Positions 16,112 through 47,443 are shown, counted from the first letter of the stretch. The stretch: DNA of 64,000 bases from Candidatus Omnitrophota bacterium (GCA_963662715.1 OY759724.1:2843339-2907338), one strand, 5' to 3'. Notes: generated by a model from the letters alone, not told the origin. Program-made: numbers and translations.

Positions 16112-17425
16112 ATGATAAAGGATGATAAGTTCAGTCACATCGTCAGGGCGACTGAAAGCGTGTGTCCGGTTTGTCTGGACTCCGTTCAGGCATTGGTGCA
16201 AATCCGGGGGGAGTCTGTTTATCTTGAAAAGACATGTCCCCGGCACGGAGATTTCCGCGTCCTCTTATCGAAACACGCCAAAGATTATAAGGAGTTGTCG
16301 GATTGCTATTTCTATTTTATCCCGCAGGCTTTGGTGCAGAAAGAATATTACCTCTGCGCAACCATGCAGTGCAATATCTCCTGCCCGATTTGTTTTCTGG
16401 ATTACTGTCAGGACAGGCAGGACCTCTCTTTTGAACGTCTGGCAGACAACCTCCGCGATAAAACAGACGTGGAAAGATTTACTTTTTCCCATGGCGAACC
16501 GACCGTCAGTCCGCAATTACCCGATATGATCCGGGCTTTGAAACGGGCGAATAAACTGGTTAACATTCATACCAACGGCGTCAGACTGGCGGATTATGAT
16601 TATGCGCTTTCCTTGAGGAACGCCGGGCTCGACCATGTCAGCCTGCAGTTCGATGGTTTCCGGGACGAGATTTATCAGGCTCTCCGGGGGGCGCGGTTAT
16701 TGGATGTTAAATTAAAAGCTCTGGAGAACCTCAAACGTTTATCCTTGCCGGTCACTTTAAATGTCACGGTGGCCAAGGAGGTGAACGATGATGAATGCGG
16801 CCGGATCTTCGATTATGTCGTTAAAAATGATTTCATGAAAGACCTGAGTTATATCACTTATTGCCATTATTCTCCTGACGATAAGGATATGGAACGTTAT
16901 ATGATGCCCGATGATCTTTTGGTTATTCTGGAAAAACACACCCAAGGCCGGCTGCAAAGAGAAAATATCATCCATTTTCAGAAACTATATTATGCTTATC
17001 TCAGTGCGTCGCATAAGAGAAAATGCTTCAATTATTATCATTATTTTATCGTCCGGACAAAGACAGGCTATCGCGGAATCGACCAGTACCTGGATTTAAA
17101 AAAGATCGCGCGGGCCATAGACCGCTGCAAAGATCAAAAGAAGAAGATGACGCGCTGGAGGCTTTATAAAATATTGCTGACATCCTTGAAAAAATCCAGC
17201 CTGTTTTTGATCCCTTATGGGGTGTCCCTGGTGTTGAGAGGGGGATATCCCAAAAAACCGGGACGGTTCCTGGTGGTGACCTTTGCCAGTATCTGTGACC
17301 CTTATAAGTATGATGCCACGGTCGCTTTGAATTGCGGGCAGGGGATTGTGACGCAGAAAAATGAACAGGAAAGTTACGGTTCATATATTATCGAAGAAAT
17401 GAAAACTTTAAGAGTCCAGTCATGA
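16112..17425 (+). CDS. Radical SAM protein with N-terminal Cys-rich ribbon; COG1964 / Tes-GDGT-MAS-like family (paralog 2 of 3)
   Basis: 437 aa. CPVC...TCPRHG, then CNISCPIC. LQFDGFRDEIY. C-terminal ICDPYKYD. Confidence 0.65.
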   Translation: MIKDDKFSHIVRATESVCPVCLDSVQALVQIRGESVYLEKTCPRHGDFRVLLSKHAKDYKELSDCYFYFIPQALVQKEYYLCATMQCNISCPICFLDYCQDRQDLSFERLADNLRDKTDVERFTFSHGEPTVSPQLPDMIRALKRANKLVNIHTNGVRLADYDYALSLRNAGLDHVSLQFDGFRDEIYQALRGARLLDVKLKALENLKRLSLPVTLNVTVAKEVNDDECGRIFDYVVKNDFMKDLSYITYCHYSPDDKDMERYMMPDDLLVILEKHTQGRLQRENIIHFQKLYYAYLSASHKRKCFNYYHYFIVRTKTGYRGIDQYLDLKKIARAIDRCKDQKKKMTRWRLYKILLTSLKKSSLFLIPYGVSLVLRGGYPKKPGRFLVVTFASICDPYKYDATVALNCGQGIVTQKNEQESYGSYIIEEMKTLRVQS

Positions 17426-18999
17426 AAATTGCCTTTGTCAATGATTCCTGCGAACGGTTAGGCGTGGAGTACATTTCGGCCGTCCTTAAACAACACGGCC
17501 ACACCGTTAAGCTCTTCGCCGATCCCCAGCTGTTTAATGACGAAAATTTCACCATCGCTCCTTTCGCAAGGTTTTTTGACTATACGGAAGAACTTGTCGC
17601 GGATATCAAGGCGTTTCAGCCGGATTTAATCGCATTTTCCGTCGTGACCGACTTTTATCAATGGGCCTGCCGCCTGGCCAGGCGGATTAAGTCTGAGATG
17701 GATGTCCCGGTCCTTTTCGGCGGTATTCATGCCACTTCCGTACCTGAAAAAGTCCTGCAGCAGGATTGTGTCGATATGGTCTGCCGGGGGGAGGGGGAAT
17801 ACGCTCTTTTGGATCTTGTCACGAGTATGGAGCGGGGGGCGATAGATTATGCCACCCGGAATATTTGGTTTAAAAAAGACGGCCGGGTTATTAGGAATGA
17901 AGTCCGCCCGTTGATAGAGAACCTGGATGAGCTTCCTTTTGCGGACAAAGATCTTTTTTACGAAGCCAGCGCCCATTTTTCCCGGTGTTATTTCTTAATG
18001 ACCAACCGCGGGTGCGCCTATGCCTGTAGTTATTGCTGCAATTCGTTCCTTAAAAAATTTTATCAGGACAAGGGGAAATATCTGCGGTTCCGCAGCGTCT
18101 CTAACGTTATCCGGGAACTGGTATGGGCCAAGGAAAAGTACGGTATCCGCATGATCCGTATCCACGACGATGATTTCCTGACCCATGACGTCAAGTGGTT
18201 CGAAGAATTTTCCGGGCAGTATGCCGGGCGGATCAAAGCCCCGTTCGCCTGTTTTACTCATCCCAACAGCGTGACGGAACGCAAGGCCGCTCTTCTTAAG
18301 AAAGCGGGCTGTCATGATATCGAAGTGGGGGTCCAGTCCATCTCCGCCAAAACACGTTACGAGGTCTTAAACCGCCGTGTTTCCGATGAGCAGTTAAGCA
18401 AAGCCATCCGCATCTTAAAAGACGCCGGGATCAAAGTTATCACGGATAATATCCTGGGGCTCCCGCACCAAAGTGATCAGGAACTGCTGGATCTTATGAG
18501 ATTTTATAATAAAAACCGGATCATGAAGATTTACTGTTTTGGGTTCCGGCACTACCCGGCCACGGATATCGTGGAGTATTCCCGAAAAGCCTCTTTGCTG
18601 ACCCGGGAGGATGTTGAGAACCTGGAAAACGGCGTGAATGTCAAAACATTCATCCAGAGCGGGGATATCTTAAGCCGGGAAGCCAAACAGCTGCAGACTT
18701 TCTTTGCGTTTCTGCTTTATCTTCCGGAATCCTTTAACAATTTTATACTGAACAGAAAATTGTACCGTTTTTTCATTCCGTTACCGTATTATATTCTTGT
18801 TATTTTCTCCAACTGGCTGAGGATCCCGTATCGTTACAACTGGGCGTTGCACATTACGGTTTGCCGTTACGGCACATATATTTTCAGGCGTTTCAAGAGC
18901 AAGCTGCGGTTTCCCGGGATGTTTGCCCGGGGAAAAAGAACTGATTTTATTCTTAAACATCCCGTAGGGCAGGAATGCGGTTCAGGAGAGAGGGCTTGA
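17422..18999 (+). CDS. Cobalamin-binding-domain radical SAM enzyme (class B-like), tandem paralog 1
   Basis: 525 aa. N-terminal B12-binding Rossmann domain (MKIAFVNDSCERLGVEYISAVLK...FGGIHATSVPE...CRGEGEY), then radical SAM CAYACSYC. Start overlaps the upstream stop (ATGA). Confidence 0.85.
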   Translation: MKIAFVNDSCERLGVEYISAVLKQHGHTVKLFADPQLFNDENFTIAPFARFFDYTEELVADIKAFQPDLIAFSVVTDFYQWACRLARRIKSEMDVPVLFGGIHATSVPEKVLQQDCVDMVCRGEGEYALLDLVTSMERGAIDYATRNIWFKKDGRVIRNEVRPLIENLDELPFADKDLFYEASAHFSRCYFLMTNRGCAYACSYCCNSFLKKFYQDKGKYLRFRSVSNVIRELVWAKEKYGIRMIRIHDDDFLTHDVKWFEEFSGQYAGRIKAPFACFTHPNSVTERKAALLKKAGCHDIEVGVQSISAKTRYEVLNRRVSDEQLSKAIRILKDAGIKVITDNILGLPHQSDQELLDLMRFYNKNRIMKIYCFGFRHYPATDIVEYSRKASLLTREDVENLENGVNVKTFIQSGDILSREAKQLQTFFAFLLYLPESFNNFILNRKLYRFFIPLPYYILVIFSNWLRIPYRYNWALHITVCRYGTYIFRRFKSKLRFPGMFARGKRTDFILKHPVGQECGSGERA

Positions 19000-20333
19000 T
19001 GAAGACCTATTTTATAACAGCTTCGACATTCTGCATGGAAAGAATGCTGGACTGCCAGAAAATTTCCGATTACTTAAAAATGAACGGCTGGCGGCCGGTG
19101 AGGCGGATCAAGAAAGCCGGTTTGATTATTGTCAGCACATGTTCTTTCGGCCGGGAAGAAGACGATAGCTCGCTCGATTATATCCGGTTTTACCTGCGCC
19201 GGAAGTTGCCTGAAGCACAATTTTTTATCATCGGGTGCGTGCCGGCGATCAATCCCGAACAGCTTGCCTCTCTGGGCGATATCCCCACGCTTTCTCCCAC
19301 CACGTTGTCCCGGCTCGACACTTTGCTGCAGCCGTCTGTGAAATTCGCGGATGTCCCGGAGCCGAACAAGATTCTTGCCGCGGAGGTCATGCACAGCGTT
19401 TTTTTGAAAAAAGCTCTCTGGCTCCGGTCCTACGTGCGGCAGGCCTTGAAGGATGTCCCGCCCGGCCCGGCGGTTCTGAGAAAAGGGGGGCAAGCGCTGA
19501 AAACCGGGATCAAGTACTTTCCGGTGCTGAAATCACACATTAATCCTTTCCTCTCCTGCAACCGGAACGGATTTTATTATCTGCGGATTTCCAAAGGGTG
19601 TCTGGGGAGCTGCAGCTACTGTGCCAAGAGACATTCTACCGGGCGGCTCAGGAGCAAACCGGATGATATGATCGTTCAGGAGTTTCAAAAAGGATTGCAA
19701 GCCGGGGAGAAAAGGTTCTACCTCTTAACGGAAGACGTCGGGTGCTACGGAATTGATCAGGAAACGACTGTCATGGCTCTGCTGAAAAGGATATTTGCTG
19801 TGGGGCATGCCCAGGAATTCCGGATTGTTGTTTCCAATTTTAACGCCCGCTGGTTTGTCAAGTATTATGACGAACTGGAAGAGCTCTTTGTGAAATATCA
19901 GACCAAAATTCTTTATGTGCAGATTCCGATCCAATCCGGGAGTACGCGGATTTTAGGGCTGATGGACCGGCATTATACGGCGGAAGACCTGAAAGAAAAA
20001 CTGCTGGCTTTAAGGCGCAAGGCCCCGGCGCTTAACCTAACGACAGACATGATTGCCGGTTTTCCCGGAGAAACCGATGAGGATTTTGAATTAACCAAGC
20101 AGTTCGTCTCTGAAATCCGGTTTCAGCATATTGATATTTTTGGATATGAACACCGGCCCAACACCCGGGCGGGGGCCCTGACGGGGCAGCTTTCCCAGGA
20201 AGTGATAGACCAAAGGGTTTTCGAACTCGCCCGATGGCAGAATAAATATTCCCAAACAAGGACTGTCATCGGCAAATTGATCGAGGTGGCCAAGGAAAAT
20301 GCGCAGCGGTACCGGACGAATTCAAGACAATAA
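18999..20333 (+). CDS. MiaB/RimO-family methylthiotransferase-like radical SAM protein with no evident TRAM domain
   Basis: MTTase N-domain cysteines (TFCMER...STCSF...GCVPA) and radical SAM motif CLGSCSYC. The C-terminus is short with no TRAM beta-barrel. Start chosen as MKTYFITAS at 18999, which overlaps the upstream stop by 1 nt (TGATG). An in-frame ATG also exists at 18975. Confidence 0.65.
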   Translation: MKTYFITASTFCMERMLDCQKISDYLKMNGWRPVRRIKKAGLIIVSTCSFGREEDDSSLDYIRFYLRRKLPEAQFFIIGCVPAINPEQLASLGDIPTLSPTTLSRLDTLLQPSVKFADVPEPNKILAAEVMHSVFLKKALWLRSYVRQALKDVPPGPAVLRKGGQALKTGIKYFPVLKSHINPFLSCNRNGFYYLRISKGCLGSCSYCAKRHSTGRLRSKPDDMIVQEFQKGLQAGEKRFYLLTEDVGCYGIDQETTVMALLKRIFAVGHAQEFRIVVSNFNARWFVKYYDELEELFVKYQTKILYVQIPIQSGSTRILGLMDRHYTAEDLKEKLLALRRKAPALNLTTDMIAGFPGETDEDFELTKQFVSEIRFQHIDIFGYEHRPNTRAGALTGQLSQEVIDQRVFELARWQNKYSQTRTVIGKLIEVAKENAQRYRTNSRQ

Positions 20334-20335
20334 AC

Positions 20336-21844
20336 ATGATGAAGAAAAAAGGTTTGAAAATTGCTTTTGTCAATGATTCCTGCGAGCATTTAGGGGTTGA
20401 GTATATATCAGCCGTCTTGAAGGCCGCAGGCCATCAGACGCAACTGTTTGTCGACCCCTTGTTATTTGATGATGAATTTATTACGGTCAAAGCCCTAAGC
20501 AAGTGTTTTGATTATAAAACGAAAATTATCAAGGAATTAAAAAGTTACGGGCCTGACCTTATCACCATGTCGGTTGTCTCCAGTTTTTATCCCTGGGCTT
20601 CCGGTATGGCGCGTTTAATCAAACAGGAGATTCCTGTTCCCGTCATTATGGGCGGCGCTCATCCCACGGCTGTCCCGGAGAGGGTCATTCAGAATGAGTT
20701 TGTTGATATGGTCTGTGTCGGAGAAGGGGAGTATTCTATGCTGGAGCTGGCCAACAGCATGGCGGCGGGCAAGGTCGATACCACTATTAAGAATATCTGG
20801 TTTAAACAAGACGGACGGATCATACGCAATGAGCTGCGGCCCCTTATCGATAACCTGGATGAGCTTCCCATGCCGGATAAGGAGCTTTACTATTCCGCCA
20901 GCCCGCATTTTTCCCAAAGCTATTATATTACCGCCAGCCGGGGGTGTCCTTATGCCTGCAGTTATTGCTGCAACTCTTACCTGCGGTCCCTGTATAAAGG
21001 GCTGGGGCCTTATCGTCGTCAGCGCAGCCCAGGTCATGTGATCGGGGAATTGGTCGAGGCGAAAAAACGCTTTGCCATTGATCCGGTTTTCTTCCTGGAT
21101 GACTGCTTTGCCTACGATCTTCAGTGGCTTAAAGAGTTTGCCCCGGCCTACCGGAAGCAGGTCGGCATAAGATTTTATTGTATGATGTTCCCTGACGATA
21201 AAATGGAGGAAGCCTTAAAATATCTGAAATTAGCCGGATGCGGAGAGATTGAAATCGGGGTGCAGTCCTGGGATGAAGATGTCCGGCGGAATATTTTTCA
21301 CCGCCGTGTTTCAAACGAGACGATGATCCGGACGATGAAGCTTATTAAAAAAGAGAATATCAATCTGGTGACCGGAGATATTCTGGGCTACCCGGGACAA
21401 AGAGAAGAGCATATCCTGAAGGCCGCGCATATTTATACGGAGATAAAACCCAGCCGGACCTATTCTTTTATCCTGAAATATTTCCCCAAAACACAGATCA
21501 CGGAAGAGGCGGTTAAAAAGGGCCAGCTAAAAGGTGAGGATGTGGAAAAGATCCTGGACGGGCATTACGGGAAATATCTGTCGAAAGACGGGAGCATGAC
21601 GGAAAAAGAGGTGATGCAGTATCTGTTCCTTTTCCTGCTTGTGCGCATCCTGCCCGTCCGGATGGCGCGGGCTGTTATCCGTAAACGTCTCTACCGGAAA
21701 TTTCCGGTGGTTCTTACGCCGGCCGCCATCTCCATTTTGAACAATTTTTCGACATCCACTTTTGAATCTAAAATTAACCGGCGAAGCGCATGGCACCGGT
21801 ATATTTATTTTTTAAAGAAGATGTTCTTTAAAGGCAAACGATGA
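20336..21844 (+). CDS. Cobalamin-binding-domain radical SAM enzyme (class B-like), tandem paralog 2
   Basis: 502 aa. KIAFVNDSCEHLGVEYISAVLK. CPYACSYC. Confidence 0.85.
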   Translation: MMKKKGLKIAFVNDSCEHLGVEYISAVLKAAGHQTQLFVDPLLFDDEFITVKALSKCFDYKTKIIKELKSYGPDLITMSVVSSFYPWASGMARLIKQEIPVPVIMGGAHPTAVPERVIQNEFVDMVCVGEGEYSMLELANSMAAGKVDTTIKNIWFKQDGRIIRNELRPLIDNLDELPMPDKELYYSASPHFSQSYYITASRGCPYACSYCCNSYLRSLYKGLGPYRRQRSPGHVIGELVEAKKRFAIDPVFFLDDCFAYDLQWLKEFAPAYRKQVGIRFYCMMFPDDKMEEALKYLKLAGCGEIEIGVQSWDEDVRRNIFHRRVSNETMIRTMKLIKKENINLVTGDILGYPGQREEHILKAAHIYTEIKPSRTYSFILKYFPKTQITEEAVKKGQLKGEDVEKILDGHYGKYLSKDGSMTEKEVMQYLFLFLLVRILPVRMARAVIRKRLYRKFPVVLTPAAISILNNFSTSTFESKINRRSAWHRYIYFLKKMFFKGKR

Positions 21845-23337
21845 AAATCGCATTTATCAATGATTCCGCTCAGCAGCTGGGCATTCAGTACATGTCCGCT
21901 GTGCTGAAACAGCACGGCCATGATGTGAGGCTGTTTATGGACCCCCAGCTGTTTGCTGACGATGTTATACAGATCAAAAGGCTCAACCGCCTGCTTGACA
22001 TGAGAAAAGACATCGTCCGGCGGGTCAAGGACTATGCTCCGGATCTGGTCGGCATATCCGTTGTCACTGATTTTTATCAATGGGCCAGCCAGATAGCCCG
22101 GATGATCAAGGATGAAATGGATGTCCCTATCATTGCCGGAGGCATCCATCCGACCTCGGTTCCGGAACGGGTCCTGCAGGATGAATGCTTTGACATGGTG
22201 TGCCTGGGGGAGGGGGAATTTCCGCTTTTGGAATTAGCCGACAGCATGCAAAGAGGAAAAATGGACACCTCCATCCCGAATATCTGGTTTAAAGAAAACG
22301 GCCGGATCATTAAAAATGAACTCCGGCCGCTTCTTGAAGACCTTGACGCTTTGCCGCTGCCGGACACGGACTTGTATTATTCCGTCAGCCCTCATTTTAG
22401 AAGGACCGGGTTGTATATTACGATGACGTCCCGCGGCTGTCCGAATGCCTGCAGTTACTGCTGTTTCTCCTATCTGCAGGACCTGTATAAAGGCAAGGGC
22501 AAACGGATCAGGCAGCGCAGCGTTCAAAATGTGATTGAAGAGTTGAGAATCAATAAGGCAAAATATAAAATAAAGTTTATCGCGTTTATGGATAACTGTT
22601 TCGGGTATGATGTGAAATGGCTCAGGGAATTCACCCCGGTTTACCGTTCGGAAATCGGCATAAAGTTCTGGTGCATCATGCACCCCAAAGACGTTACAGA
22701 AGAAACCCTCCGGCACCTCAAACAGGCCGGATGCCATACCATTGACATGGGCGTGCAGTCCTGGAACGAGGATATACGAAAAGAAGTCCTTCACCGGGAT
22801 GTCGATAACGATACGATGGCCCGGGCTATTCAGATCGTTAAGGATGCCGGGATCGAAATTATGACCGACAGCATTTTTGACCTGCCCGGGCAGACAGAAG
22901 AGGATGTCCTGGAAAGCGCCCGGAGATACGTTGAGATCAGGCCGAAGCGGATATATTTTTACATGTTACGGCATTATCCGAACACCCTCATAACCCGGTT
23001 GGCCAAACAAGATCAGCGGCTTGCGCCGGCCAGGTATGAAGAAGTGATGAGCGGGGTGAATGTCACGTCCTTTACGGTCGGCGGAGACCAGGTCAACCAG
23101 AGAATGATTCAGTTCCAAATCCTGTTTTATTTGATTGATCTGATCCCCAAAAGCATAAGCCGGTATATCATTCGCAAAAGACTTTATCGGTATTTCCCTG
23201 TGGCTTTGGGGCCGGCTATTATTGTCATCCTGCGCAATCTTTTGGCTTTTGATATGAATGCGCGGCTTCAACGCGCCTGGGCTTTTAATCGCTACGCCTA
23301 TTTTATCTGGCAGAAATTAAAACCTTTAAAGAAATAA
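21841..23337 (+). CDS. Cobalamin-binding-domain radical SAM enzyme (class B-like), tandem paralog 3
   Basis: 498 aa. MKIAFINDSAQQLGIQYMSAVLK. CPNACSYC. ATGA overlap with the upstream gene. Confidence 0.85.
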   Translation: MKIAFINDSAQQLGIQYMSAVLKQHGHDVRLFMDPQLFADDVIQIKRLNRLLDMRKDIVRRVKDYAPDLVGISVVTDFYQWASQIARMIKDEMDVPIIAGGIHPTSVPERVLQDECFDMVCLGEGEFPLLELADSMQRGKMDTSIPNIWFKENGRIIKNELRPLLEDLDALPLPDTDLYYSVSPHFRRTGLYITMTSRGCPNACSYCCFSYLQDLYKGKGKRIRQRSVQNVIEELRINKAKYKIKFIAFMDNCFGYDVKWLREFTPVYRSEIGIKFWCIMHPKDVTEETLRHLKQAGCHTIDMGVQSWNEDIRKEVLHRDVDNDTMARAIQIVKDAGIEIMTDSIFDLPGQTEEDVLESARRYVEIRPKRIYFYMLRHYPNTLITRLAKQDQRLAPARYEEVMSGVNVTSFTVGGDQVNQRMIQFQILFYLIDLIPKSISRYIIRKRLYRYFPVALGPAIIVILRNLLAFDMNARLQRAWAFNRYAYFIWQKLKPLKK

Positions 23338-23352
23338 GCGGACTGGCAAATC

Positions 23353-24882
23353 ATGAAAATCGCTTTTGTCAATGATTGTATTGAACGGCTCGGCGTCGAA
23401 TATATTTCCGCTCTTCTGAAGAACGCGGGACACGACGTTAAGCTTTTCGTCGATCCGCAGCTGTTTGATGATGTCCATATTCATCACAAGGCGTTAAACC
23501 GATATTTCGACCACAAGCAAAAGATCATCGCGGACCTGCTGGAATACCGGCCGGACCTGATCGCTTTCTCCGTGGACACAGAATCCTATGCCTGGGCCAG
23601 CGGCATGGCCCGGGCCGTTAAATCCCGCATGGAGGCGCCTGTTATATTTGGCGGGATCCACCCTTCATCCGTTCCTGACCATGTCATCAGGAACGACGCC
23701 GTCGATATCCTGTGCGTCGGCGAGGGGGAATACCCCATGCTGGAACTTGCGGAAAGCATGGCCAGAGGGGAAATGGACACACATATTAGCAATTTGTGGT
23801 TTAAACAGCAGGGAAAGATTGTCAGAAATCCTCTGCGCCCGTTGCTCAAGGACCTCGATGTTCTGCCTTACGCCGATCATGATCTTTTCTACAGTCACAG
23901 CCCGTATTTTCAGCAAGGGTACGGCACCATAGTCTCCCGGGGGTGCCCTTACACTTGCAGTTACTGCTGTCATTCCTATTTGCGCAAGCTCTATCAGGCA
24001 AACGGGACATATCTCCGTCTGCGCAGCGTGAGTAATGTGATTGAAGAATTGAAAGATCATGTGGCGAAATATGATGTCGGGACGATCACTTTTTTTGATG
24101 ATAATTTCGGCTATAATTTCAAATGGCTGGAAGAATTTTCCCGTGAATATGCCCGGGCCATTAAGAAAAGGTTTAAAGTGACGACTCATCCGGAGATTGT
24201 GTCCCGCGAATATATCCGTCTGCTGAAAGACGCGGGCTGCTGTTCGGTGGATCTGGGCATCCAGTCCTGGGATCGGCAGGTGAGACGCTATTGGTTCCAG
24301 AGAGATGTTGAAACAGGCGTGATGCGGCGGGCGATGGAGCTTATCAAAGAAGCACGCCTGGAATTGATCTGCGATAATATTTTTAACGTCCCTGCGCAGG
24401 ATGATGAACAGTATATTCAGACGCTGTTGCCGTATACGGATATTAAACCGCATCGGATCATATTTAACCAGTTGAAATATTATCCCGGCGTGGCCATCAC
24501 CGAAAAGGCCAAAAGGGAGGGGTTCATCGGCGAGGAAAGATACCGCATGATATTGGACGGGGCGGATCAAAAGGGGGTTTATTTGGACGAAGTCGTGCTG
24601 AAAGAGCGGGAACGGAAGAGTTTTGTTAAAATGAAAGTTTTTTTGTATCTCATGGATTGTTTCCCCAAGAAATTTTCCCGCTATGTCATCATGAAAAAGA
24701 TTTACCGTTATTTCCCCGGTATTTTTAACCCGGCGTTTTTTCTGATGTTCCGGACCCTTTTTTCCTCTGATTCCGACACGCAATATTTAAAACAAAGAAC
24801 CTTGGCGAGATACCGTTATCATATCGGCAGACGGCTAAGGTTGAAATTATTTTCAAGGAGACATAATGAACAGTCAAAGTGA
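23353..24882 (+). CDS. Cobalamin-binding-domain radical SAM enzyme (class B-like), tandem paralog 4
   Basis: 509 aa. MKIAFVNDCIERLGVEYISALLK. CPYTCSYC. Confidence 0.85.
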   Translation: MKIAFVNDCIERLGVEYISALLKNAGHDVKLFVDPQLFDDVHIHHKALNRYFDHKQKIIADLLEYRPDLIAFSVDTESYAWASGMARAVKSRMEAPVIFGGIHPSSVPDHVIRNDAVDILCVGEGEYPMLELAESMARGEMDTHISNLWFKQQGKIVRNPLRPLLKDLDVLPYADHDLFYSHSPYFQQGYGTIVSRGCPYTCSYCCHSYLRKLYQANGTYLRLRSVSNVIEELKDHVAKYDVGTITFFDDNFGYNFKWLEEFSREYARAIKKRFKVTTHPEIVSREYIRLLKDAGCCSVDLGIQSWDRQVRRYWFQRDVETGVMRRAMELIKEARLELICDNIFNVPAQDDEQYIQTLLPYTDIKPHRIIFNQLKYYPGVAITEKAKREGFIGEERYRMILDGADQKGVYLDEVVLKERERKSFVKMKVFLYLMDCFPKKFSRYVIMKKIYRYFPGIFNPAFFLMFRTLFSSDSDTQYLKQRTLARYRYHIGRRLRLKLFSRRHNEQSK

Positions 24883-26206
24883 CAGAATGATCCGGGAAAC
24901 GCAAAGTCTATGCCCGGTGTGCGGCCGTAAAATCCAGGCGGCTATTGTCGAGTCGGAAGGCCGTGTTTATTTGAAAAAAAACTGCGGCGAGCACGGCATG
25001 TTCCGGATCAGGGTTTCCAGGCACGCCTGGTACTACAAGGCGCTGACGGACTATTATTTCAGGGTTATGCCGGAGACTATGCCTCAAAAACGTTTTTATA
25101 TTTATTTCAGCAACCGCTGCAATCTGCATTGCCCGATCTGTCTGCTGGAGCCCAACCAGGATAAAATGGCGGATATCGATCTGGAACGTTTTAAAAAGGT
25201 TATCAGGGAAAACCCGAAGTTCCGTTATTACATTTACGGCGCGGAGCCGACATTGCGTCAGGATCTGCCGGAGTGGATCCGGCTGCTGAAAGATTACGGG
25301 AATATGGTCAATATTCACAGTAACGGCATTAAGCTGGATGATTTTGAATATTTGCAGGAACTGCAGGCATGCGGGCTGGATTATCTGAGCCTGCAGTTTG
25401 ACGGTTTTGACGATGATATTTATCTCCGGTTGAGAAACCAGAAGCTGCTGGACAGGAAAATGAAAGTCCTGGAAAATCTGGAAAAGCTGAATATCCCTAC
25501 CGGGCTGAATGTCACAATCGCCAAAAACGTCAACGAAGCCCAGGTGAAGCCCATTATTGATTATGCCGTTAAAAGGCCGTTTATCCGGGATGTGAGTTTC
25601 GCCTCGGTGTCCTTCCTGGGGGATGCGGAAAAGAATTTTTCTGCCGAAGATCTGCTCATGCCGGACGACTTGGTCGACATGGCCGAGGAGCAAACTCAGG
25701 GGGAGATTTCCCGGCGCAGTATGTATCTGTTTCAAAAGTTATATTATGCCGTTTTATCTGTTTTTAACATCCGGCGCTGTTATAATTTTCACCATATGGC
25801 CCTGGTGCGTGACCGGCAAGGTTACCAGACATTTGATGCCCTGTTTGATTTGGCGGATTTTGAAAAGGTCCTGGACAGATATTCTCAATGGGCGGGGAAA
25901 AGCAAAACCAAAGCCTCGTTATATTTCTGGGGGCAGCTTGTGCTGAATATGTTGACCAAAAAGCCCTTTGAAAAATTAAAGACTCTGCCGCTCAACATGC
26001 TTCTGCCGGGGAATATCCGAAGCCCCAAGATCCCGTCGAAAATCTTGCTGGTCAGCTTCGGAACGGTTTGCGACAAGTATAAATATGATTCCGGTATTTC
26101 CAAATACTGCGGACAGGGTTTTGTATTCAATCAAAATGAGGATATCGTTTTGTCCGATTCGATATCCGATGTGACGCTTTTACGTGAGGACCGGCAGTGT
26201 TTGTAG
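24866..26206 (+). CDS. Radical SAM protein with N-terminal Cys-rich ribbon; COG1964 / Tes-GDGT-MAS-like family (paralog 3 of 3)
   Basis: 446 aa. CPVCGRK...NCGEHG, then CNLHCPIC. LQFDGFDDDIY. C-terminal VCDKYKYD. Overlaps the upstream gene by 17 nt. Confidence 0.65.
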   Translation: MNSQSDRMIRETQSLCPVCGRKIQAAIVESEGRVYLKKNCGEHGMFRIRVSRHAWYYKALTDYYFRVMPETMPQKRFYIYFSNRCNLHCPICLLEPNQDKMADIDLERFKKVIRENPKFRYYIYGAEPTLRQDLPEWIRLLKDYGNMVNIHSNGIKLDDFEYLQELQACGLDYLSLQFDGFDDDIYLRLRNQKLLDRKMKVLENLEKLNIPTGLNVTIAKNVNEAQVKPIIDYAVKRPFIRDVSFASVSFLGDAEKNFSAEDLLMPDDLVDMAEEQTQGEISRRSMYLFQKLYYAVLSVFNIRRCYNFHHMALVRDRQGYQTFDALFDLADFEKVLDRYSQWAGKSKTKASLYFWGQLVLNMLTKKPFEKLKTLPLNMLLPGNIRSPKIPSKILLVSFGTVCDKYKYDSGISKYCGQGFVFNQNEDIVLSDSISDVTLLREDRQCL

Positions 26207-26239
26207 TGCGAAACGTTTTTTATTACCGAGCGGGGTACG

Positions 26240-27760
26240 ATGAAAATAGCCTTTGTGAATGATTCCTGTGAACGTTTGGGGGTGGGGTATATTGCCGCCC
26301 TTTTAAGATCCCGCGGGCATGAGGTCCGGATATATATTGACCCGCAATATTTTAAAGACGAAAATATCAACATCAAATATCTGCAGAATATTTGTGATCG
26401 TCAGGCCCGGCTGATATCCCGTCTCAAAACCTATAACCCCGACCTTATCGGCTTTTCTGTTGTCTCCGATTTTTACCCCTGGGCCTGTGCCTTGGCGCAG
26501 TCCATTAAACGGGAGATGGCCGCGCCGATCATCTTTGGGGGGATTCATCCGTCTTCCGTCCCGGACCGCGTTATTCAGAAAGATTTTGTGGATATGGTCT
26601 GTGTGGGGGAGGGGGAATACCCCATGCTGGAGCTTGCGGAGAGCCTGGAACGGGGCAAGATAGATACTTCGATCAAAAATATCTGGTTTAAAAAGAACGG
26701 TACGGTCATAAAGAATGAACAGCGCCTTTTACTGACCGACCTGGACCGGCTCCCGTTTCCGGAAAAAGATCTTTTTTACGCCTCGAGCCCGTATCTGTCG
26801 CGGTGTTACTATATTATGGCGAGCCGGGGATGCGCGTATTCCTGCAGTTACTGCTGTCATTCCTACCTCAGACAAATGTGTCAGGGGAAAGGCCCGTACT
26901 TCAGGCAAAGAAGCGTTGATAATGTCTTGGCGGAACTGATTGAAGCTAAAAACAGGTACCCGGTCAAGTATGTGAGATTTTTTGACGACAGCCTGGGACT
27001 GAATCTCAAATGGCTTAAGGAATTTTCTGAAAAATACCCGAAAACCGTGGGGCTGCCTTTCATGTGTTATATGTATCCCAGCCATATTTCAGAGGTGACG
27101 GCGCACTACCTGAAACAGGCCGGGTGCTGCGAAGTGGAGATCGGTGTTCAGAGTCTTAACGAGGATTTAAGCCGGAATGTTTTGCATCGCAACCTGTCTG
27201 AACAGCAGATCGCGCAAGCTATCGATATCCTTAAAAAGGAAAAAATCCGCCTGGTGGCGGATAACATTGTCGGCCTGCCCGGACAGGAAGAATCGGATAT
27301 CCTTCATATGGCGGAATTTTACAATAAACGGAGAGTGAACAGGATTTATTTTTTCTGGCTGCGTTATTATCCCGGAACAGTGATTGCGGAATATGCCAAA
27401 GAACAGGGGTACCTGAGTGAAGAAGAATATAACAGCATCATGGACGGTCGGCCGAGCCGGCCTTTTTCAAGGGGAGGGAATACTCTGAACCGAAAATGGC
27501 TGGGCCTGCAATTTCTGTTATTTCTTCTTCCTTTTCTCCCGCCACGGATTGTGAACTGGATCATCGAGAAAAAGATTTACAGGCATTTTAATAAAATCCG
27601 TTCTCCGGGGATTTTTACCGCCCTGACAAGTTTGTTCTCAACAGCGTATAATGATAAAATTCTTATCAGGCGGGAACTGGCCCGTTACAGCTGTTTGTTT
27701 AAAAGGCTGCGTGAACCTCAAAAAACGAAAAAAAATCTCCAACGGCCTCCTGTTTTTTAA
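26240..27760 (+). CDS. Cobalamin-binding-domain radical SAM enzyme (class B-like), tandem paralog 5
   Basis: 506 aa. MKIAFVNDSCERLGVGYIAALLR. CAYSCSYC. Confidence 0.85.
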   Translation: MKIAFVNDSCERLGVGYIAALLRSRGHEVRIYIDPQYFKDENINIKYLQNICDRQARLISRLKTYNPDLIGFSVVSDFYPWACALAQSIKREMAAPIIFGGIHPSSVPDRVIQKDFVDMVCVGEGEYPMLELAESLERGKIDTSIKNIWFKKNGTVIKNEQRLLLTDLDRLPFPEKDLFYASSPYLSRCYYIMASRGCAYSCSYCCHSYLRQMCQGKGPYFRQRSVDNVLAELIEAKNRYPVKYVRFFDDSLGLNLKWLKEFSEKYPKTVGLPFMCYMYPSHISEVTAHYLKQAGCCEVEIGVQSLNEDLSRNVLHRNLSEQQIAQAIDILKKEKIRLVADNIVGLPGQEESDILHMAEFYNKRRVNRIYFFWLRYYPGTVIAEYAKEQGYLSEEEYNSIMDGRPSRPFSRGGNTLNRKWLGLQFLLFLLPFLPPRIVNWIIEKKIYRHFNKIRSPGIFTALTSLFSTAYNDKILIRRELARYSCLFKRLREPQKTKKNLQRPPVF

Positions 27761-27798: not shown

Positions 27799-29409
27799 AT
27801 GCGAAAATTCAATTTGTTAGCCGTTTTCTTGAAATACCGCATCCTGTTGCTCGTATTGCTGTTGATTGATATTCTACGAAATCCTTTTTATCTTAATTTT
27901 GTTGAGTCCTCGGACCGCCTGCGGGAATTCTCCAAATACATTTTCTTGAGATCAGCCGTTTTAAATCAAATTATTGACAACGGGGTAACGGTTTTAAATA
28001 AGCAATTTCATTTGTTGCAGGGTGCGTTCACCAATATTTTGCTTTATTTCGGCGGCTATGTTTTGCTGTGTGTCATCTCTGCGGTTTCCCGGAAGAATGC
28101 GGACCGCCGCGCCCATCCGTCCCTTGTCCCGGGAATACTGATTATCCTGTGGTCTTTTATTTACGTTTTTTGTCTGAAGGATTTTCCTCCCGGCATAAGT
28201 TTCTGCCTTATGGCCTGTATGGTCGGGGTTGCGGGCATGGATTTCATCCTTTTTTTCAGGGAAGGTTTTTTCGATAATAAATCTAATAAAAACATTTTTG
28301 CCGGTTTTTTTACGTCCGTTATTTTTCTGAGTGAATTGTTCTGCGCCCCGCTCTATTGGCAATTTTTATGTGTGTTGCAGGGGAAGAAATTCCCGAAAAA
28401 GATTTCCGTTGTTATTCAGCACGGGCATTTTATGCTCTTTATGGCTGTGGCGCTGATTTTCCTGTCTCCCCTTGAGAGCCCGTCCATTATTGAGATGCGA
28501 CAGATCAAAAAAGGCCAGTACTATGGTCTGCAGTATTATAAGGATAATATCCTGGTGGCGCTTAATGATTTCGAAGGACAGGTGGAACGTATCCACGTGG
28601 GTCATGATGTGTCTACAAAGGTCATTTACCGTTCGACGTTTCCCCGGGGCACGGAGGAGGCCATGGGGGAGAGGCTGGCTTTGAGCCCTGAGAGAGAAGA
28701 GGTGTATTTTACGGACAGGAAACAAAGCCAGCTGATCGTTGCGGATGACCGCAGTCAGAAAATAAAAGCAATGATTTCTTCCGATGTCTTCGATATGGGG
28801 GATAATGCTCTTGCTTACATGAACGGTCACGTTTATGGACTTACGGAAGAAAAACTGTGCGTTTATAAAATTGATATGTCGAGCGCCGCTCCCCAACATG
28901 TCCCGCGTTATTGCATCAATGAAGGAGAGGGAGGGATCATCCTGCCTAACGGGCCGCGTAATGTTTTATATGCCGCGAACTGGAATGATCCGGAAAACCG
29001 ATTTTTTATTTATGAGATTGACGGCCAGACACTGGATATTCACAGACGTTTCCCGATGCCGGCTGCCGGAGTGGCTATGGCCGCCGAAAACGGCAAAAAA
29101 CTGTATTGTATCTGGCCAAGGAATCTTTATGTTTTAGATGCCGGGAATTTTCGTGTTGTTGATAAAATGAAGCTTTCTTACGGCCTGATGAACACGTTTT
29201 CCCTGGATGATACGAATCAATTGGTATTCGGGGCGAACCATTTCACCAATATCATCGAAGTCATCGATTTAAAGACCAAGAAAACAGTGCAATATTTCCG
29301 GGCGGGGATCGGCAATTCCCATATCAGCAGAATCACGGTTGATGCGGAGAATAAAAATTTTTATGCCACGGTATTCCGCGACGGCATTTATATGGGGCAT
29401 TATGAATAG
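27799..29409 (+). CDS. Hypothetical polytopic membrane protein with C-terminal predicted beta-propeller-like soluble domain
   Basis: 536 aa. About 6 hydrophobic segments in the first ~230 aa, then repeated beta-strand-rich segments (...LYAANWNDPENRFFIYEIDGQ...LYCIWPRNLYVLDAGNFRVVD...). Confidence 0.35.
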   Translation: MRKFNLLAVFLKYRILLLVLLLIDILRNPFYLNFVESSDRLREFSKYIFLRSAVLNQIIDNGVTVLNKQFHLLQGAFTNILLYFGGYVLLCVISAVSRKNADRRAHPSLVPGILIILWSFIYVFCLKDFPPGISFCLMACMVGVAGMDFILFFREGFFDNKSNKNIFAGFFTSVIFLSELFCAPLYWQFLCVLQGKKFPKKISVVIQHGHFMLFMAVALIFLSPLESPSIIEMRQIKKGQYYGLQYYKDNILVALNDFEGQVERIHVGHDVSTKVIYRSTFPRGTEEAMGERLALSPEREEVYFTDRKQSQLIVADDRSQKIKAMISSDVFDMGDNALAYMNGHVYGLTEEKLCVYKIDMSSAAPQHVPRYCINEGEGGIILPNGPRNVLYAANWNDPENRFFIYEIDGQTLDIHRRFPMPAAGVAMAAENGKKLYCIWPRNLYVLDAGNFRVVDKMKLSYGLMNTFSLDDTNQLVFGANHFTNIIEVIDLKTKKTVQYFRAGIGNSHISRITVDAENKNFYATVFRDGIYMGHYE

Positions 29410-29458
29410 AGCCCAAGATGCAAGCGGGGGAAACTTTACAAGAAACGGATGAGGCAAC

Positions 29459-30499
29459 GTGAGAGAAACGAGAACTCTTTATAAAACAATTATGATGTTT
29501 CTTGTCCCGACCTGCCTTACGGTCGTCGTCCTGTATCTGTTATTCAGAAAAGTGGATCTGCCGATGATGTGGGCTTCTATGCGGCAGATCCATCCTGTGT
29601 TTCTTTTAACAGCGTTTTCAATTTCTGTTTTCTGTAACATCGCGGTTTATGCGCTGATTCGGTGTAAGATATGGCGGATCATGGGCGTTCCGGTCTCTTA
29701 CCGGGAATCGGTTTTTATCAGGCTGGGAAGCCTGCCGTTTCAGGCGATCCCGACATTTAAAGATACCGGCTTAGCCAAGGCCATATACCTGAAAAAATTT
29801 TTTGCCATGCCGATGACGGAAGGAGTTCTATCAAATATTATTGCCAATATTTTCAGCGTGACGGCAATAATATCTTTGGCGGTCGCCGGCGCTCTGGCGA
29901 ACGGAATCAATGTGATGCATATGTCTCAGATCAACCAGCCGCTTCTGCTCAGAGTGGTCCCGGTTATCGGGGTGATCAGCTTCGTCCTTTATGCGTTTTA
30001 TTTTCATCAGCCCTTTGGGAAAAAAATGCTTTTTCATGTCTGCTTCAAAAGAAACCCGGACCTGTACCGTATTTTTGAAAAAAATATGCATCTCTGGAAA
30101 AAACTTCCCGGGGTCCGGCTCTTCAGCTTTTTTGCCCTGGCCCTTGCTTTTAAGTTAGCCGAGGTGTCTATTTTTTTTGTCTTAGCGCAGGCGTATTCTT
30201 TGAATATCCCCTTTTCGGCTATTTTACTTTTTGTCCCTTTGGCCATGATTATCAGCGAGTCGCCGGCCAATATCTCCGGACTTGGGGTCAGGGAAGGGGC
30301 CCTTGTGCTGTTTTTCTGGAATTTTGCGGCCAAGGAAACCCTTGTGGCCATGGCTGTGCTGGTTTTTGTTTTTAACCGGCTCTGTCCGTTAATACTGGGA
30401 CTTGTGTTTTGTTATCCGTTTTTTTCCAGGTTAGGGGTATCATGGAAAAGCGTCAGGGCCATGGCGGGCCGGGAAGGAATAAATTCATTTTCTACATAA
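29459..30499 (+). CDS. Flippase-like / lysylphosphatidylglycerol-synthase-TM-region family membrane protein
   Basis: 346 aa, ~8 TM segments. The pattern resembles the TIGR00374/PF03706 family that is usually paired with GT2 polyprenol-phosphate glycosyltransferases. Confidence 0.55.
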   Translation: MRETRTLYKTIMMFLVPTCLTVVVLYLLFRKVDLPMMWASMRQIHPVFLLTAFSISVFCNIAVYALIRCKIWRIMGVPVSYRESVFIRLGSLPFQAIPTFKDTGLAKAIYLKKFFAMPMTEGVLSNIIANIFSVTAIISLAVAGALANGINVMHMSQINQPLLLRVVPVIGVISFVLYAFYFHQPFGKKMLFHVCFKRNPDLYRIFEKNMHLWKKLPGVRLFSFFALALAFKLAEVSIFFVLAQAYSLNIPFSAILLFVPLAMIISESPANISGLGVREGALVLFFWNFAAKETLVAMAVLVFVFNRLCPLILGLVFCYPFFSRLGVSWKSVRAMAGREGINSFST

Positions 30500-30517
30500 A
30501 AAGGCCATTGTTGATTC

Positions 30518-31246
30518 ATGCTAAATCAAACGATTTCTCTGGTTGTTCCTGTTTATAATGAGGCGGAAATCATCGCGGAAACAGTTGCCGTTTTTGACGA
30601 CGCCTTAAGGAGCATCTGCCGGGATTACGAAATCATTATCGTGGACGACGGAAGCGTTGATGAAACCCCGGGGATTCTTCAGCGCCTCTGTTCCCAGCAC
30701 GTTCGTTTAAAGATTATGCATAATTCTGCCAATATCGGAAGCGGGGCCAGCCTTTGGCGGGGCTTTCAGCAGGCGGGCAAAGACCTTGTCGTCAGCAATT
30801 TCGCGGACAGGCCTTTTGATGTTACGGAGCTGGGAAGAATTATCCCGTCCGTTGATTTCAGCGCCACAGACTTCGTCGTGGTTGTCCGGCAGGACAGAAG
30901 CGCAAACACACCCTATCGTAAGATCACGTCTTTGACGAATTATTGGCTTATCCGATGCCTTTTCCGAATTGAGATTTCTGATTTCCAATTTGTGCAGATT
31001 TACAGGCGGGACATCCTGAAGGGCGTTCGCATTGACTCCCAGGAAACATTTGTTCCCCCCGAGCTTATGATCAGGCTGATTCAAAAGGGATATCGGTATC
31101 AGGAGGTTGTTTCTTCTTTTTATAGACGGCCCGGGGGCCAGCCCAAGTGCGGTCATCCCGGGAAAATCATGAAAAGTATATTTGATATTTTAAAATTTTG
31201 GATATCCTGGGAAATCTTGGGGAAAAAGGACGGAGGGGAGCGATGA
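30518..31246 (+). CDS. GT2 glycosyltransferase, polyprenol-phosphate sugar transferase type (ArnC/DPM1-like)
   Basis: 242 aa. N-terminus SLVVPVYNEAEIIAETVAVF...YEIIIVDDGSVDETPGIL is the GT-A DXD region of ArnC/DPM1-like enzymes. Confidence 0.8.
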   Translation: MLNQTISLVVPVYNEAEIIAETVAVFDDALRSICRDYEIIIVDDGSVDETPGILQRLCSQHVRLKIMHNSANIGSGASLWRGFQQAGKDLVVSNFADRPFDVTELGRIIPSVDFSATDFVVVVRQDRSANTPYRKITSLTNYWLIRCLFRIEISDFQFVQIYRRDILKGVRIDSQETFVPPELMIRLIQKGYRYQEVVSSFYRRPGGQPKCGHPGKIMKSIFDILKFWISWEILGKKDGGER

Positions 31247-31941
31247 GAATCAGCATTATGCAACCCGGGTATTTACCCTGGCTGGGTTTCTTTGACCTGA
31301 TGGCCCGCTGTGAACTGTTTGTGATACTCGATGACGTCCGGTTTGCCCCAAGGGACTGGCGTAGCCGTAACCGGATCCGCACCAAAGACGGATGGGTCTG
31401 GTTGACGGTCCCGGTTTTATCCAAAGGCCGGGCCGGGCAAAACATTCTAGACGCTCAAATCAATAATGATATCAACTGGCGTCATACTCATTTGAACTGT
31501 TTGAGAATTCATTATGCGAAGGCCCCGTATTTTAAGGATTACATCCGATTGTTCGAGGATGTTTACACCCGACAGTGGAACAGCCTGCTGGAGCTGGATA
31601 TGGCCCTGATTTCCTCCCTGTCCCGGCAAATGAAGATTGAGACCCCTGTCATGCACTCGTCATCTTTATCTCTTACGGATGTCTCCGGCAATGAACGTAT
31701 CATTAAAATCTGTCAAGAACTGGACGCCCAAGAGCTTTACGACAGTCAGGGCGCTAAGCCGTTTATCCAAATGCCTCTATTTGAGGAAGCGAATATCCGG
31801 GTGGTTTTTCAGGATTACCGGCATCCGGAATATCAACAAGTTTATGAACCGTTTTTACCGTATATGTCTGTCGTTGATTTATTGTTTAACGAAGGGCCGC
31901 GGAGCAAGGATGTTCTGCTGCGTGATGGCCCTTCCGGTTAA
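31243..31941 (+). CDS. WbqC-family protein (polysaccharide-cluster associated)
   Basis: MRISIMQPGYLPWLGFFDLMARCELFVILDDV matches the WbqC family N-terminus. Start set at the ATG that overlaps the upstream stop (ATGA), not the track's upstream ATG at 31198. Confidence 0.6.
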   Translation: MRISIMQPGYLPWLGFFDLMARCELFVILDDVRFAPRDWRSRNRIRTKDGWVWLTVPVLSKGRAGQNILDAQINNDINWRHTHLNCLRIHYAKAPYFKDYIRLFEDVYTRQWNSLLELDMALISSLSRQMKIETPVMHSSSLSLTDVSGNERIIKICQELDAQELYDSQGAKPFIQMPLFEEANIRVVFQDYRHPEYQQVYEPFLPYMSVVDLLFNEGPRSKDVLLRDGPSG

Positions 31942-31971
31942 AGGGTAGACAAGGAAAAGGAAGATGGTTTT

Positions 31972-42697: not shown

Positions 42698-42744
42698 TAG
42701 CCGGGTGTTTTCATCCATCTGCCCATAAGACAAGCGAGTCCAGG

Positions 42745-44151: not shown

Positions 44152-44156
44152 AATTC

Positions 44157-46066: not shown

Positions 46067-46107
46067 TCCGGATTTTTATCCATTAGCGGTCTATAGCCGA
46101 TATTCTT

Positions 46108-47322: not shown

Positions 47323-47443
47323 AACGGTATAAATTTTTCAGCCTTAAAAAGTTTTATCTGAAAAATGCAAAAGCTGTTTGTCCGGGGGGCTTCCTTTCTC
47401 CGGGATATCCCATATGGATACAAAAGGCGGGTAACGGGAATTT

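Follow-up and report, generated by a model that had tools for sequence, protein, structure and literature searches.

We analyzed a 64,000-nucleotide stretch of DNA from a Candidatus Omnitrophota bacterium (GCA_963662715.1 OY759724.1:2843339-2907338; hereafter, the window), which carries five related genes encoding B12-binding radical S-adenosylmethionine (SAM) proteins, named here B1 to B5. An earlier reading made from the sequence alone (the sequence-only reading) had described them as five + strand open reading frames (ORFs) of 498-525 amino acids, and our analysis recovered each of them at the same coordinates: B1 at 17422..18999 (525 amino acids), B2 at 20336..21844 (502), B3 at 21841..23337 (498), B4 at 23353..24882 (509), and B5 at 26240..27760 (506). 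B2, B3, B4, and B5 are 100% identical to the database proteins P0085, P0050, P0113, and P0042, respectively, which are all encoded on a single contig, evidently that of the source genome. Each of the five proteins harbors a PF02310 domain (57-73 bits, cut-off 32.1; 68 bits in B1) followed by a PF04055 domain (72-85 bits, cut-off 29.5; 85 bits in B1), and the RGC-x3-C-x2-C motif is intact in all of them (CxxxCxxC at residue 198 of B1). The two DNA strings quoted in the sequence-only reading match exactly at 17422 and 26240, and its figure of about 70% nucleotide identity at the 5' ends agrees with the 63-75% that we measured over the first 27 codons.

The description of these genes as a tandem array has to be amended, as only B2, B3, and B4 are contiguous. 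The gene of a MiaB/RimO-like radical SAM protein (U; 18975..20333, + strand) lies between B1 and B2, and that of a radical SAM protein of the Tes/GDGT-MAS family (H3; 24866..26206, + strand) lies between B4 and B5. The gene overlaps that had been read as translational coupling are present, both with these interleaved genes (B1/U, 25 nucleotides; B4/H3, 17 nucleotides) and between B2 and B3 (4 nucleotides), as well as between B1 and the gene upstream of it, H2 (4 nucleotides). The N-terminal pattern proposed for all five proteins holds broadly; the exceptions are that the B2 ORF starts with MMKKKGLKIAF, in which the L is a TTG codon that gives a possible true start at 20354, and that B3 has Q where the pattern demands E.

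The five proteins align from end to end, with pairwise whole-length identities of 40.7-49.1%, and are thus full-length paralogs of one subfamily rather than members of unrelated clades that share a generic N-terminus. When averaged over bins of 25 alignment columns, pairwise identity reaches 74% at the N-terminus and still 62-64% in columns 101-175 and 201-225, then falls to 16-37% at the C-terminus. The N-terminal motif, MKIAFVNDSCERLGVEYISAVLK, is the consensus of approximately 120 database homologs from many genomes, whereas B6-B10 and m2, six other B12-type or B12-like radical SAM proteins of the window, have only the generic Rossmann pattern in its place. This distribution argues that the motif is the signature of an uncharacterised subfamily, and neither a generic B12-domain consensus nor a sign of youth. 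The subfamily is large: an exhaustive profile search gave more than 150 clusters at 50% identity, the 150th representative still scoring 487 bits over its full length.

We compared the locus with related contigs, namely L081, L082/L083 (Omnitrophica WOR_2 GWF2_38_59), and L165; the top database matches of B1 are Candidatus Omnitrophota metagenome-assembled genomes (MAGs). A genome scan with an ilvB-like gene of the window likewise placed the window among PVC/Omnitrophota MAGs, and yielded no syntenic locus. The gene order of the array is identical in all of these contigs, and each of B1-B5 has an ortholog at the same position, with identities of 61-84% in L081, 53-71% in L082, and 62-81% in L165, vs 41-51% between paralogs. 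For L081, L082, and L165, respectively, these values are 84, 71, and 79% for B1; 78, 68, and 74% for B2; 83, 69, and 81% for B3; 61, 53, and 62% for B4; and 72, 59, and 74% for B5. In addition, 120 database homologs fall cleanly into five orthogroups, which were assigned by identity from a neighbor-joining tree. Because each paralog is closer to its same-position ortholog than to any other paralog, the five-fold duplication is older than the split of these Omnitrophota lineages. Of the local amplification followed by divergence that had been proposed, the duplication and the divergence therefore stand, but the amplification is not recent.

Copy-number variation among other MAGs, which the sequence-only reading had suggested looking for, was found in accessory copies at the B5 end and not in the core five, which are constant. 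There are five B genes per array in the window and in L082, six in L081, where the sixth follows B5, and seven in L165, where one of the extra genes lies between H3 and B5 and the other after B5. The source genome itself encodes a sixth copy of the subfamily (P0069) outside the window. These accessory copies form old orthogroups of their own, 44-51% identical to the paralogs of the window, so that the subfamily comprises at least eight orthogroups, five of them forming a conserved core and the others an accessory set that varies. In more distant relatives, one to four copies occur, differently arranged.

The similarity of the 5' ends at the DNA level is best read as a consequence of protein conservation, since synonymous identity is not clearly raised there and exact matches are short. 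At residues identical between paralogs, the same codon is used in 38-62% of cases within the first 27 codons vs 42-50% in the remainder, third-position identity is 41-52% vs 35-40%, and exact matches shared by two copies extend over 13-23 nucleotides at most. We therefore rejected gene conversion or recent duplication of the N-terminus. With such short matches, no clear synonymous excess, and a gene order kept across genomes, the B copies are predicted to be poor substrates for homologous recombination, and the suggestion that the region is recombination-prone found no support.

An AlphaFold2 model of B1, built from a 63-sequence alignment, was obtained with high confidence (predicted local distance difference test, 92.7; predicted template modeling score, 0.90). 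Foldseek matched it to TsrM, CysS, MgmA, TokK, OxsB, and AprD4 with probability 1.00 (TM-score 0.58-0.64, E-value 1e-17 to 1e-21, 14-16% identity), which predicts a class B radical SAM fold for B1. In the same alignment C202 and C205 are invariant and C198 nearly so (B1 numbering). The motifs described for cobalamin binding in class B enzymes, i.e., the "downstream" motif of the β3-α3 loop, a GG, and a GE on α5 (PMC9204698), correspond by motif matching rather than by structural superposition to A71-x-S73-x-V75...Y79-x-W81-A82, G100-G101, and G123-E124-G125-E126 of B1, all of them invariant or nearly so. All five copies look functional, as they retain both the CxxxCxxC and the cobalamin motifs. 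Three further cysteines of B1, C121, C277, and C297, are also invariant or nearly so in the subfamily alignment, position 277 being Val in the B4 orthogroup.

Scores against curated families place B1-B5 at a distance from every characterised group. HpnJ (TIGR03471) is the top NCBIfam match of four of the five paralogs, at 98-114 bits (cut-off 577.6), with a B12-type radical SAM family linked to ladderane-type lipids (TIGR04072) at 84-109 bits (cut-off 360) and BchE (TIGR02026) at 67-100 bits (cut-off 481). The models of characterised methylases give 58-71 bits for KedN5 (cut-off 700), 41-53 bits for HpnR (650), 51-69 bits for TIGR03975 (282), 36-73 bits for MgmA (TIGR04014; 360), and 31-56 bits for TsrM (500). 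By these NCBIfam models, B1-B5 are not members of the characterised class B C-methyltransferase families. The closest solved relative by sequence is AprD4 (E-value = 3e-8 with B1 and 1e-15 with the subfamily profile), with TsrM, OxsB, and CysS near; none of the solved class B enzymes gives more than 61 bits with the subfamily profile (CysS 53 bits, TokK 40 bits).

We then asked which positions distinguish the five core orthogroups. There are 85 positions conserved at 90% or more within every one of the five, of which 62 carry the same residue throughout and 23 differ between groups. The latter cluster at B1 residues 75-78, 250-251, 341-343, and 373-376. In the model, residues 75-78 sit on the β3-α3 loop facing the cobalamin, a loop that holds the residue closest to cobalt in OxsB, TsrM, and TokK (PMC9204698). 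The other three clusters are at, or just past, the C-terminal ends of the barrel strands E245-247, E338-345, and E369-374; judging from the fold, they would lie on the side where radical SAM enzymes usually meet their substrate. Such a pattern is what would be expected of subfunctionalised enzymes with a common cofactor machinery and a different substrate or site of action. The proposal of regiospecific or successive tailoring by the paralogs is plausible, and it gains indirect support from the clustering of these 23 sites near the cobalamin loop and the barrel ends.

The radical SAM proteins encoded between and before the B genes belong to other classes. H1 (13453-14841, + strand), H2 (16112-17425, + strand), and H3 share a Zn_ribbon_HMPTM domain (PF23545) and a radical SAM domain (PF04055) and are mutually 34-40% identical. 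H3 matches GDGT-MAS/Tes (PDB 7tol) with an E-value of 1.5e-46, and scores 161 bits with the Tes model (NF045702; cut-off 450) and 180 bits with TrsS (cut-off 490), below both thresholds. On this evidence, H1-H3 are true homologs of the archaeal tetraether synthase. U harbors UPF0004 and radical SAM domains (Pfam) and scores 224 bits with TIGR00089 (cut-off 251) in a match that stops at position 381 of the 429 of the model, so that no TRAM domain was detected in it and it falls outside MiaB/RimO as defined by that model. Both cysteine sets of methylthiotransferases are kept (residues 20/27, 56, and 88, and residues 209/213/216). U is conserved at the same position in L081, L082, and L165, and we consider it a candidate methylthiotransferase that would act on neither tRNA nor protein. 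It is 23% identical to the MtaB of the window, a housekeeping radical SAM protein encoded upstream at 7212-8513.

Members of the B1-B5 subfamily also occur as fusions. P0239 is fused with a GT4 glycosyltransferase; P0180 with a Tes-like radical SAM protein, which mirrors the overlapping B4/H3 pair; P0139, P0165, and P0197 with SPASM radical SAM proteins; and P0130, P0156, P0195, and P0260 with class I SAM methyltransferases. A further long protein, P0007 (764 amino acids, encoded on a 232,035-bp contig), joins an ortholog of B5 (73% identical) to the first half of another protein of the subfamily and is probably a read-through or an assembly artefact, which calls for caution with the other fusions. 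A 753-amino acid fusion of a B12-type radical SAM protein with a DPM1-like glycosyltransferase of family 2 (GT2), encoded at 17535-19796 of contig L084, was discarded as a member of the subfamily; its enzyme part is of the B6 type (44% identical to the protein encoded at 38386-39894 of the window), and it bears on the picture of the whole island only.

The array is part of a run of 17 co-directional genes (11425-33807), of which 10 encode radical SAM proteins, in the order DegT, rSAM-SPASM (a radical SAM protein with a SPASM domain), H1, DegT, H2, B1, U, B2, B3, B4, H3, B5, X, LPG_synthase_TM, GT2, WbqC, and YfhO-like. Since the junctions range from -49 to +49 nucleotides (six are overlaps) and terminator-like sites within the run are no commoner than in shuffled sequence, the 17 genes are predicted to be co-transcribed as one operon. 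The operon opens with a DegT-family aminotransferase gene (11425-12492, + strand; Pfam), whose product has PseC, LegC, and ArnB as closest models, all below cut-off, and which overlaps the rSAM-SPASM gene (12476-13450, + strand; Pfam). The latter encodes a 324-amino acid protein with a full SPASM domain, and its only solved relatives found in the PDB are BtrN (E-value = 8e-10) and DesII (7e-4). BtrN and DesII are radical SAM enzymes that partner DegT-family transaminases on amino-sugars or aminocyclitols. The two genes are likewise adjacent in L081-L084 and in ERZ1426827.

A second DegT gene of the operon (14843-16108, + strand; Pfam) encodes a protein with a hydrophobic insertion. This insertion, of approximately 55-65 residues just after the region of the pyridoxal phosphate-binding lysine, is present in three of the four DegT paralogs of the surrounding island (encoded at 14843-16108, 39891-41168, and 46108-47322) and absent from the fourth (11425-12492). 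The nearest matches of the island's DegT proteins are nucleotide-sugar transaminases (PseC, LegC, ArnB, and WecE), and the insertion suggests that those bearing it are membrane-associated sugar aminotransferases, of which we know of no previous description.

The array is followed by five genes on the + strand (27799..33807), assigned by Pfam and a scan for transmembrane segments, with putative functions in transfer and export: X (six transmembrane segments and a soluble domain), LPG_synthase_TM, a small GT2, WbqC, and a YfhO-like protein (11 transmembrane segments). The same five follow the array in L165. Below equivalog cut-offs, the GT2 is nearest to the polyprenyl-phosphate glycosyltransferases ArnC (7e-15), dolichol-phosphate-mannose synthase (DPMS; 4e-11), and GtrB (5e-8). 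The YfhO-like protein matches the Pfam family YfhO in its C-terminal part only (39 bits, cut-off 28.5), and a separate protein of the island, encoded at 47444, matches PMT_2 above the Pfam cut-off (99 bits); outside the cytoplasm, both of these GT-C-type families draw on such lipid-linked donors. Neither the YfhO-like nor the LPG_synthase_TM protein had a PDB match by sequence search.

Taken together, we favor, with a confidence slightly better than even, the reading that B1-B5 are old, individually kept paralogs, each of which catalyzes a radical step of its own on a common glycosyl intermediate associated with the membrane. That degree of confidence applies to the reading as a whole; it is higher for the evolutionary part and lower for the chemistry. 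A sugar or lipid-linked substrate is suggested by the DegT aminotransferases and the hydrophobic insertions in them, the SPASM radical SAM enzyme, the GT2, the relatives of YfhO and PMT_2, and the export module kept in L165, and the intermediate would most likely be a polyprenyl-phosphate-linked amino-sugar or the head group of a glycolipid. The fusions of subfamily members described above also count in favor of this reading. In such a pathway, an intermediate linked to polyprenyl phosphate or to a nucleotide would carry the sugar, or be the form in which it is handled, on the cytoplasmic side of the membrane, where the radical SAM dehydrogenase and its DegT partner could convert hydroxyls into amines without oxygen or NAD-dependent oxidation. 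Each B paralog might then perform one site-specific radical step on the common scaffold, either a C-methylation or a rearrangement or deoxygenation, with the Tes-like and MiaB-like enzymes acting beside them to add or rearrange carbon and sulfur substituents. Finally, the finished unit would be flipped over the membrane and moved to an acceptor in the envelope by the GT-C-type proteins.

Several observations weigh against this reading. B1-B5 fall below every curated NCBIfam threshold, their best scores being approximately 100 bits, and both methylases (TsrM, CysS, TokK, and MgmA) and non-methylases (AprD4, OxsB, and HpnJ) appear similarly distant from them by sequence and by modeled fold, so that the chemistry is not readable from either; no sequence signature divides class B methylases from non-methylases. 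C-methylation is the commonest chemistry of class B enzymes (PMC9204698). Cobalamin binding by B1-B5 is suggested by their motifs only. The class B fold also exists without cobalamin, in AprD4. Within the operon we identified no nucleotide-sugar 4,6-dehydratase, nucleotidyltransferase, or known flippase family, and ten radical steps on one sugar would be unprecedented. The three enzymes of the Tes family hint instead at an alkyl or lipid substrate. In addition, read-through of frameshifts in metagenome assemblies could have created some of the fusions, as it seems to have done for P0007. Finally, distant metagenome loci carry single-copy B-like genes, with a GT2 in the same locus in 10 of 32; these loci come from the subfamily alignment at 28-49% identity and are mostly short, a weak basis for a co-occurrence statistic.

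The Tes-like enzymes carry most of the case for an alternative in which the operon tailors the alkyl chains of core membrane lipids, as a bacterial analogue of the tailoring of glycerol dialkyl glycerol tetraethers (GDGTs) in archaea. Here, the Tes-like enzymes would couple carbon to carbon, the B12-type enzymes would resemble the Grs ring synthases or the Hgm/Gmm methylases and act on one position each, the SPASM enzyme would be similar to Gms/Hbs, and the sugar genes would do no more than decorate the head group. The strong match of H3 to GDGT-MAS/Tes and the presence of three such paralogs fit this view, as does the mix of radical SAM classes, which parallels the archaeal toolkit (Tes/GDGT-MAS, Gms/Hbs, GrsA/GrsB, and Hgm/Gmm), although Grs, Hgm, and Gms are likened by class and not by sequence. 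GrsA and GrsB set a precedent for position-specific paralogs, the subfamily includes one fusion with a Tes-like protein, B2 and B3 have hydrophobic C-terminal helices, and Mss and Hbs homologs have been reported from Omnitrophota MAGs. However, H3 stays far below the Tes cut-off, among solved structures the SPASM enzyme comes nearest to BtrN and DesII, which act on sugars and aminocyclitols, and Pfam scans of the 47 kb island found no glycerolipid, ether-lipid, fatty-acid, or isoprenoid genes. The genes beside the radical SAM genes are carbohydrate-like, dominated by sugar aminotransferases, polyprenyl-phosphate-type GT2s, and GT-C-type proteins; the context is thus of glycan type and not of glycerolipid type, in a bacterial host of the PVC (Planctomycetes-Verrucomicrobia-Chlamydiae) group. 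We regard tailoring of core lipids as unlikely, though as the main alternative.

It is less probable still, in our view, that the operon makes a soluble secondary metabolite similar to aminoglycosides or aminocyclitols, with the DegT and BtrN-like pair and AprD4/GenK-like enzymes building a pseudo-oligosaccharide. The top PDB matches do point this way (BtrN for the SPASM enzyme, AprD4 for both B1 and the subfamily profile), the island encodes several DegT aminotransferases, and one subfamily member is fused with a GT4 glycosyltransferase; but these matches are remote (E-value = 8e-10 and 1e-15), the window holds no 2-deoxy-scyllo-inosose synthase, resistance gene, or dedicated exporter, and the ArnC/DPMS-like GT2, LPG_synthase_TM, YfhO-type transferase, PMT_2, GT9, and CapK-like proteins are typical of envelope glycoconjugates. 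Arrays of class B radical SAM genes are known from proteusin-type clusters of ribosomally synthesized and post-translationally modified peptides (RiPPs), and the B12-type enzymes could accordingly be peptide C-methyltransferases of the PoyB/PoyC type acting repeatedly on a ribosomal precursor, in keeping with below-cut-off matches to the C-methyltransferase models TIGR03975 and ApyD. We rejected this reading as highly improbable, as no ORF in or beside the operon, where internal gaps are at most 49 nucleotides, makes a plausible precursor; moreover, domain scans found no peptidase, RiPP (leader) recognition element, or ATP-binding cassette exporter, the neighbors are carbohydrate enzymes, and the RiPP models reach 51-97 bits, whereas their cut-offs are 282-750. 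Finally, the copies could be young, partly redundant, and recombination-prone products of a local hotspot with unstable copy number. The differing number of accessory copies among close relatives and the sixth copy in the source genome are compatible with this, yet the one-to-one positional orthologs of the core five, far closer than the paralogs are to one another, the short exact matches without synonymous excess, and the age of the accessory orthogroups already contradict it for the core five, and we give it next to no credence.

The reading of B1-B5 as successive tailoring enzymes of a lipid-linked amino-sugar can be set against known systems. All parts of the operon belong to known superfamilies, and they do not make up a new category. 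The proteins resemble TsrM, TokK, CysS, MgmA, OxsB, and AprD4 in combining an N-terminal Rossmann-type cobalamin domain with a partial TIM-barrel radical SAM domain that bears CxxxCxxC and is followed by a C-terminal helical cap. They differ from them in sequence, as seen in the low identities and profile scores above, and the substrates of the solved enzymes (tryptophan, a carbapenem, an acyl-carrier-bound aromatic, a protein glutamine, dAMP, and paromamine) are unrelated to the gene context found here. A closer parallel in gene content is the hpn cluster, in which the B12-type radical SAM enzyme HpnJ, whose substrate is a lipid-linked amino-sugar, is encoded with the GT2 HpnI and the LPG_synthase_TM-family protein HpnL. 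Here, too, B12-type radical SAM genes lie beside a GT2 and an LPG_synthase_TM gene, and HpnJ is the best NCBIfam match of four of the five paralogs; however, the hpn cluster has a single radical SAM enzyme vs at least five paralogs plus Tes-like and MiaB-like proteins in our operon, the scores are far under 578 bits, which places B1-B5 outside HpnJ, and the window contains no squalene-hopene cyclase (shc), hpnH, or hpnG.

The three-component polyprenyl-phosphate systems (ArnC/ArnT, GtrB/GtrA/Gtr, and CsbB/GtcA/YfhO) share with the operon a small ArnC/DPMS/GtrB-like GT2, GT-C-type YfhO/PMT_2 proteins, and DegT proteins comparable to ArnB, but a flippase of the GtrA or ArnE/F type was not found here, LPG_synthase_TM being the only candidate. 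To our knowledge, no three-component glycosylation system includes ten radical SAM enzymes. Likewise, the overlapping DegT and rSAM-SPASM genes at the start of the operon recall BtrS/BtrN and DesI/DesII/DesV, from which the pair differs by the remoteness of the similarity and by the full SPASM domain in its 324-amino acid protein. We found no description of this type of cluster or of the subfamily in the literature library that was searched.

The island as a whole, with the operon included, extends over approximately 47 kb, to approximately 58.8 kb, and encodes 17 radical SAM proteins, all of them with CxxxCxxC. Downstream of the operon, on the - strand, are a gene for a CapK/PaaK-like adenylating enzyme (33819-35312; assigned through CapK_C, NCBIfam below cut-off, and conserved in L165) and the overlapping gene of m2 (35294-36793), a distant B12-radical SAM-like protein that is 25-27% identical to B1-B5 and has CxxxCxxC without a Pfam match to the B12 domain; the pair is kept after the operon in L165. 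The remainder (38386..58789, + strand) includes the B12-type radical SAM genes B6-B10 (starting at 38386, 41165, 42745, 50230, and 53681; assigned by Pfam, motifs, and gene junctions), an ortholog of the first of which, B6, lies immediately upstream of the operon in L082. Pfam further identified there another radical SAM gene (45074), the two remaining DegT genes (39891 and 46108), second copies of LPG_synthase_TM (44157) and GT2 (56719), an ArnT-like PMT_2 gene (47444), an AsnB-like amidotransferase gene (51716), and a GT9 gene (57563), and the scan for transmembrane segments identified two polytopic membrane proteins (48720 and 55010).

Other genes of the window surround the island. Directly upstream of the operon there is a gene for a type IV pilin- or pseudopilin-like protein with an N-terminal methylation motif (10639-11028, + strand), which is not at that position in L081/L082. 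Defence-like genes flank the island on both sides: a CAP12/Pycsar-type TIR-domain protein followed by a 187-amino acid ORF (8538-9979, + strand) on one, and an AAA_15/AAA_21 ATPase (61610-63589, + strand) on the other. Farther upstream, adjacent genes for GshA and GshB (glutamate-cysteine ligase and glutathione synthetase; 3754-6005, - strand) predict glutathione synthesis in a presumably anaerobic Omnitrophota genome. No riboswitch or other RNA of Rfam was found in the window.

A more specific proposal, possible though doubtful at present, is that the operon encodes a membrane-associated assembly line in which ten radical SAM enzymes of four classes (five or more of cobalamin type, three C-C couplers of the Tes type, a methylthiotransferase without TRAM, and a dehydrogenase similar to BtrN) build, on a polyprenyl-phosphate carrier, an amino-glycolipid that is heavily C-alkylated, cross-linked, and possibly methylthiolated. 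An operon of the envelope-glycan type that unites ten radical SAM enzymes from four classes, Tes homologs and a TRAM-less methylthiotransferase among them, has no characterised precedent known to us; this one is conserved across an uncultured phylum. Were the proposal true, Tes homologs and a MiaB-family enzyme would for the first time be assigned a glycan or lipid-carrier substrate, and the operon would be a bacterial counterpart of archaeal GDGT tailoring that works on an envelope glycoconjugate.

Few pools of unassigned enzyme chemistry are as large as that of the class B radical SAM proteins, and the B subfamily, with its more than 150 clusters, has no characterised member. With at least eight orthogroups in kept order, orthogroup-specific residues near the active site, and fusions with GT4, Tes-like, SPASM, and methyltransferase domains, it provides a comparative data set for that chemistry. 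If each paralog does catalyze a distinct step, the array would offer a natural setting in which to follow the evolution of regiospecificity among cobalamin-dependent radical enzymes, and would show the way in which anaerobes modify envelope glycoconjugates in the absence of oxygen. The locus also suggests that bacterial Tes homologs, which serve as markers of the producers of membrane-spanning lipids such as branched GDGTs, can sit in glycan-type clusters, which bears on how biomarker sources are assigned. As Omnitrophota are uncultured, the envelope chemistry predicted from their genomes would be a lead for lipidomics and glycomics based on enrichments.

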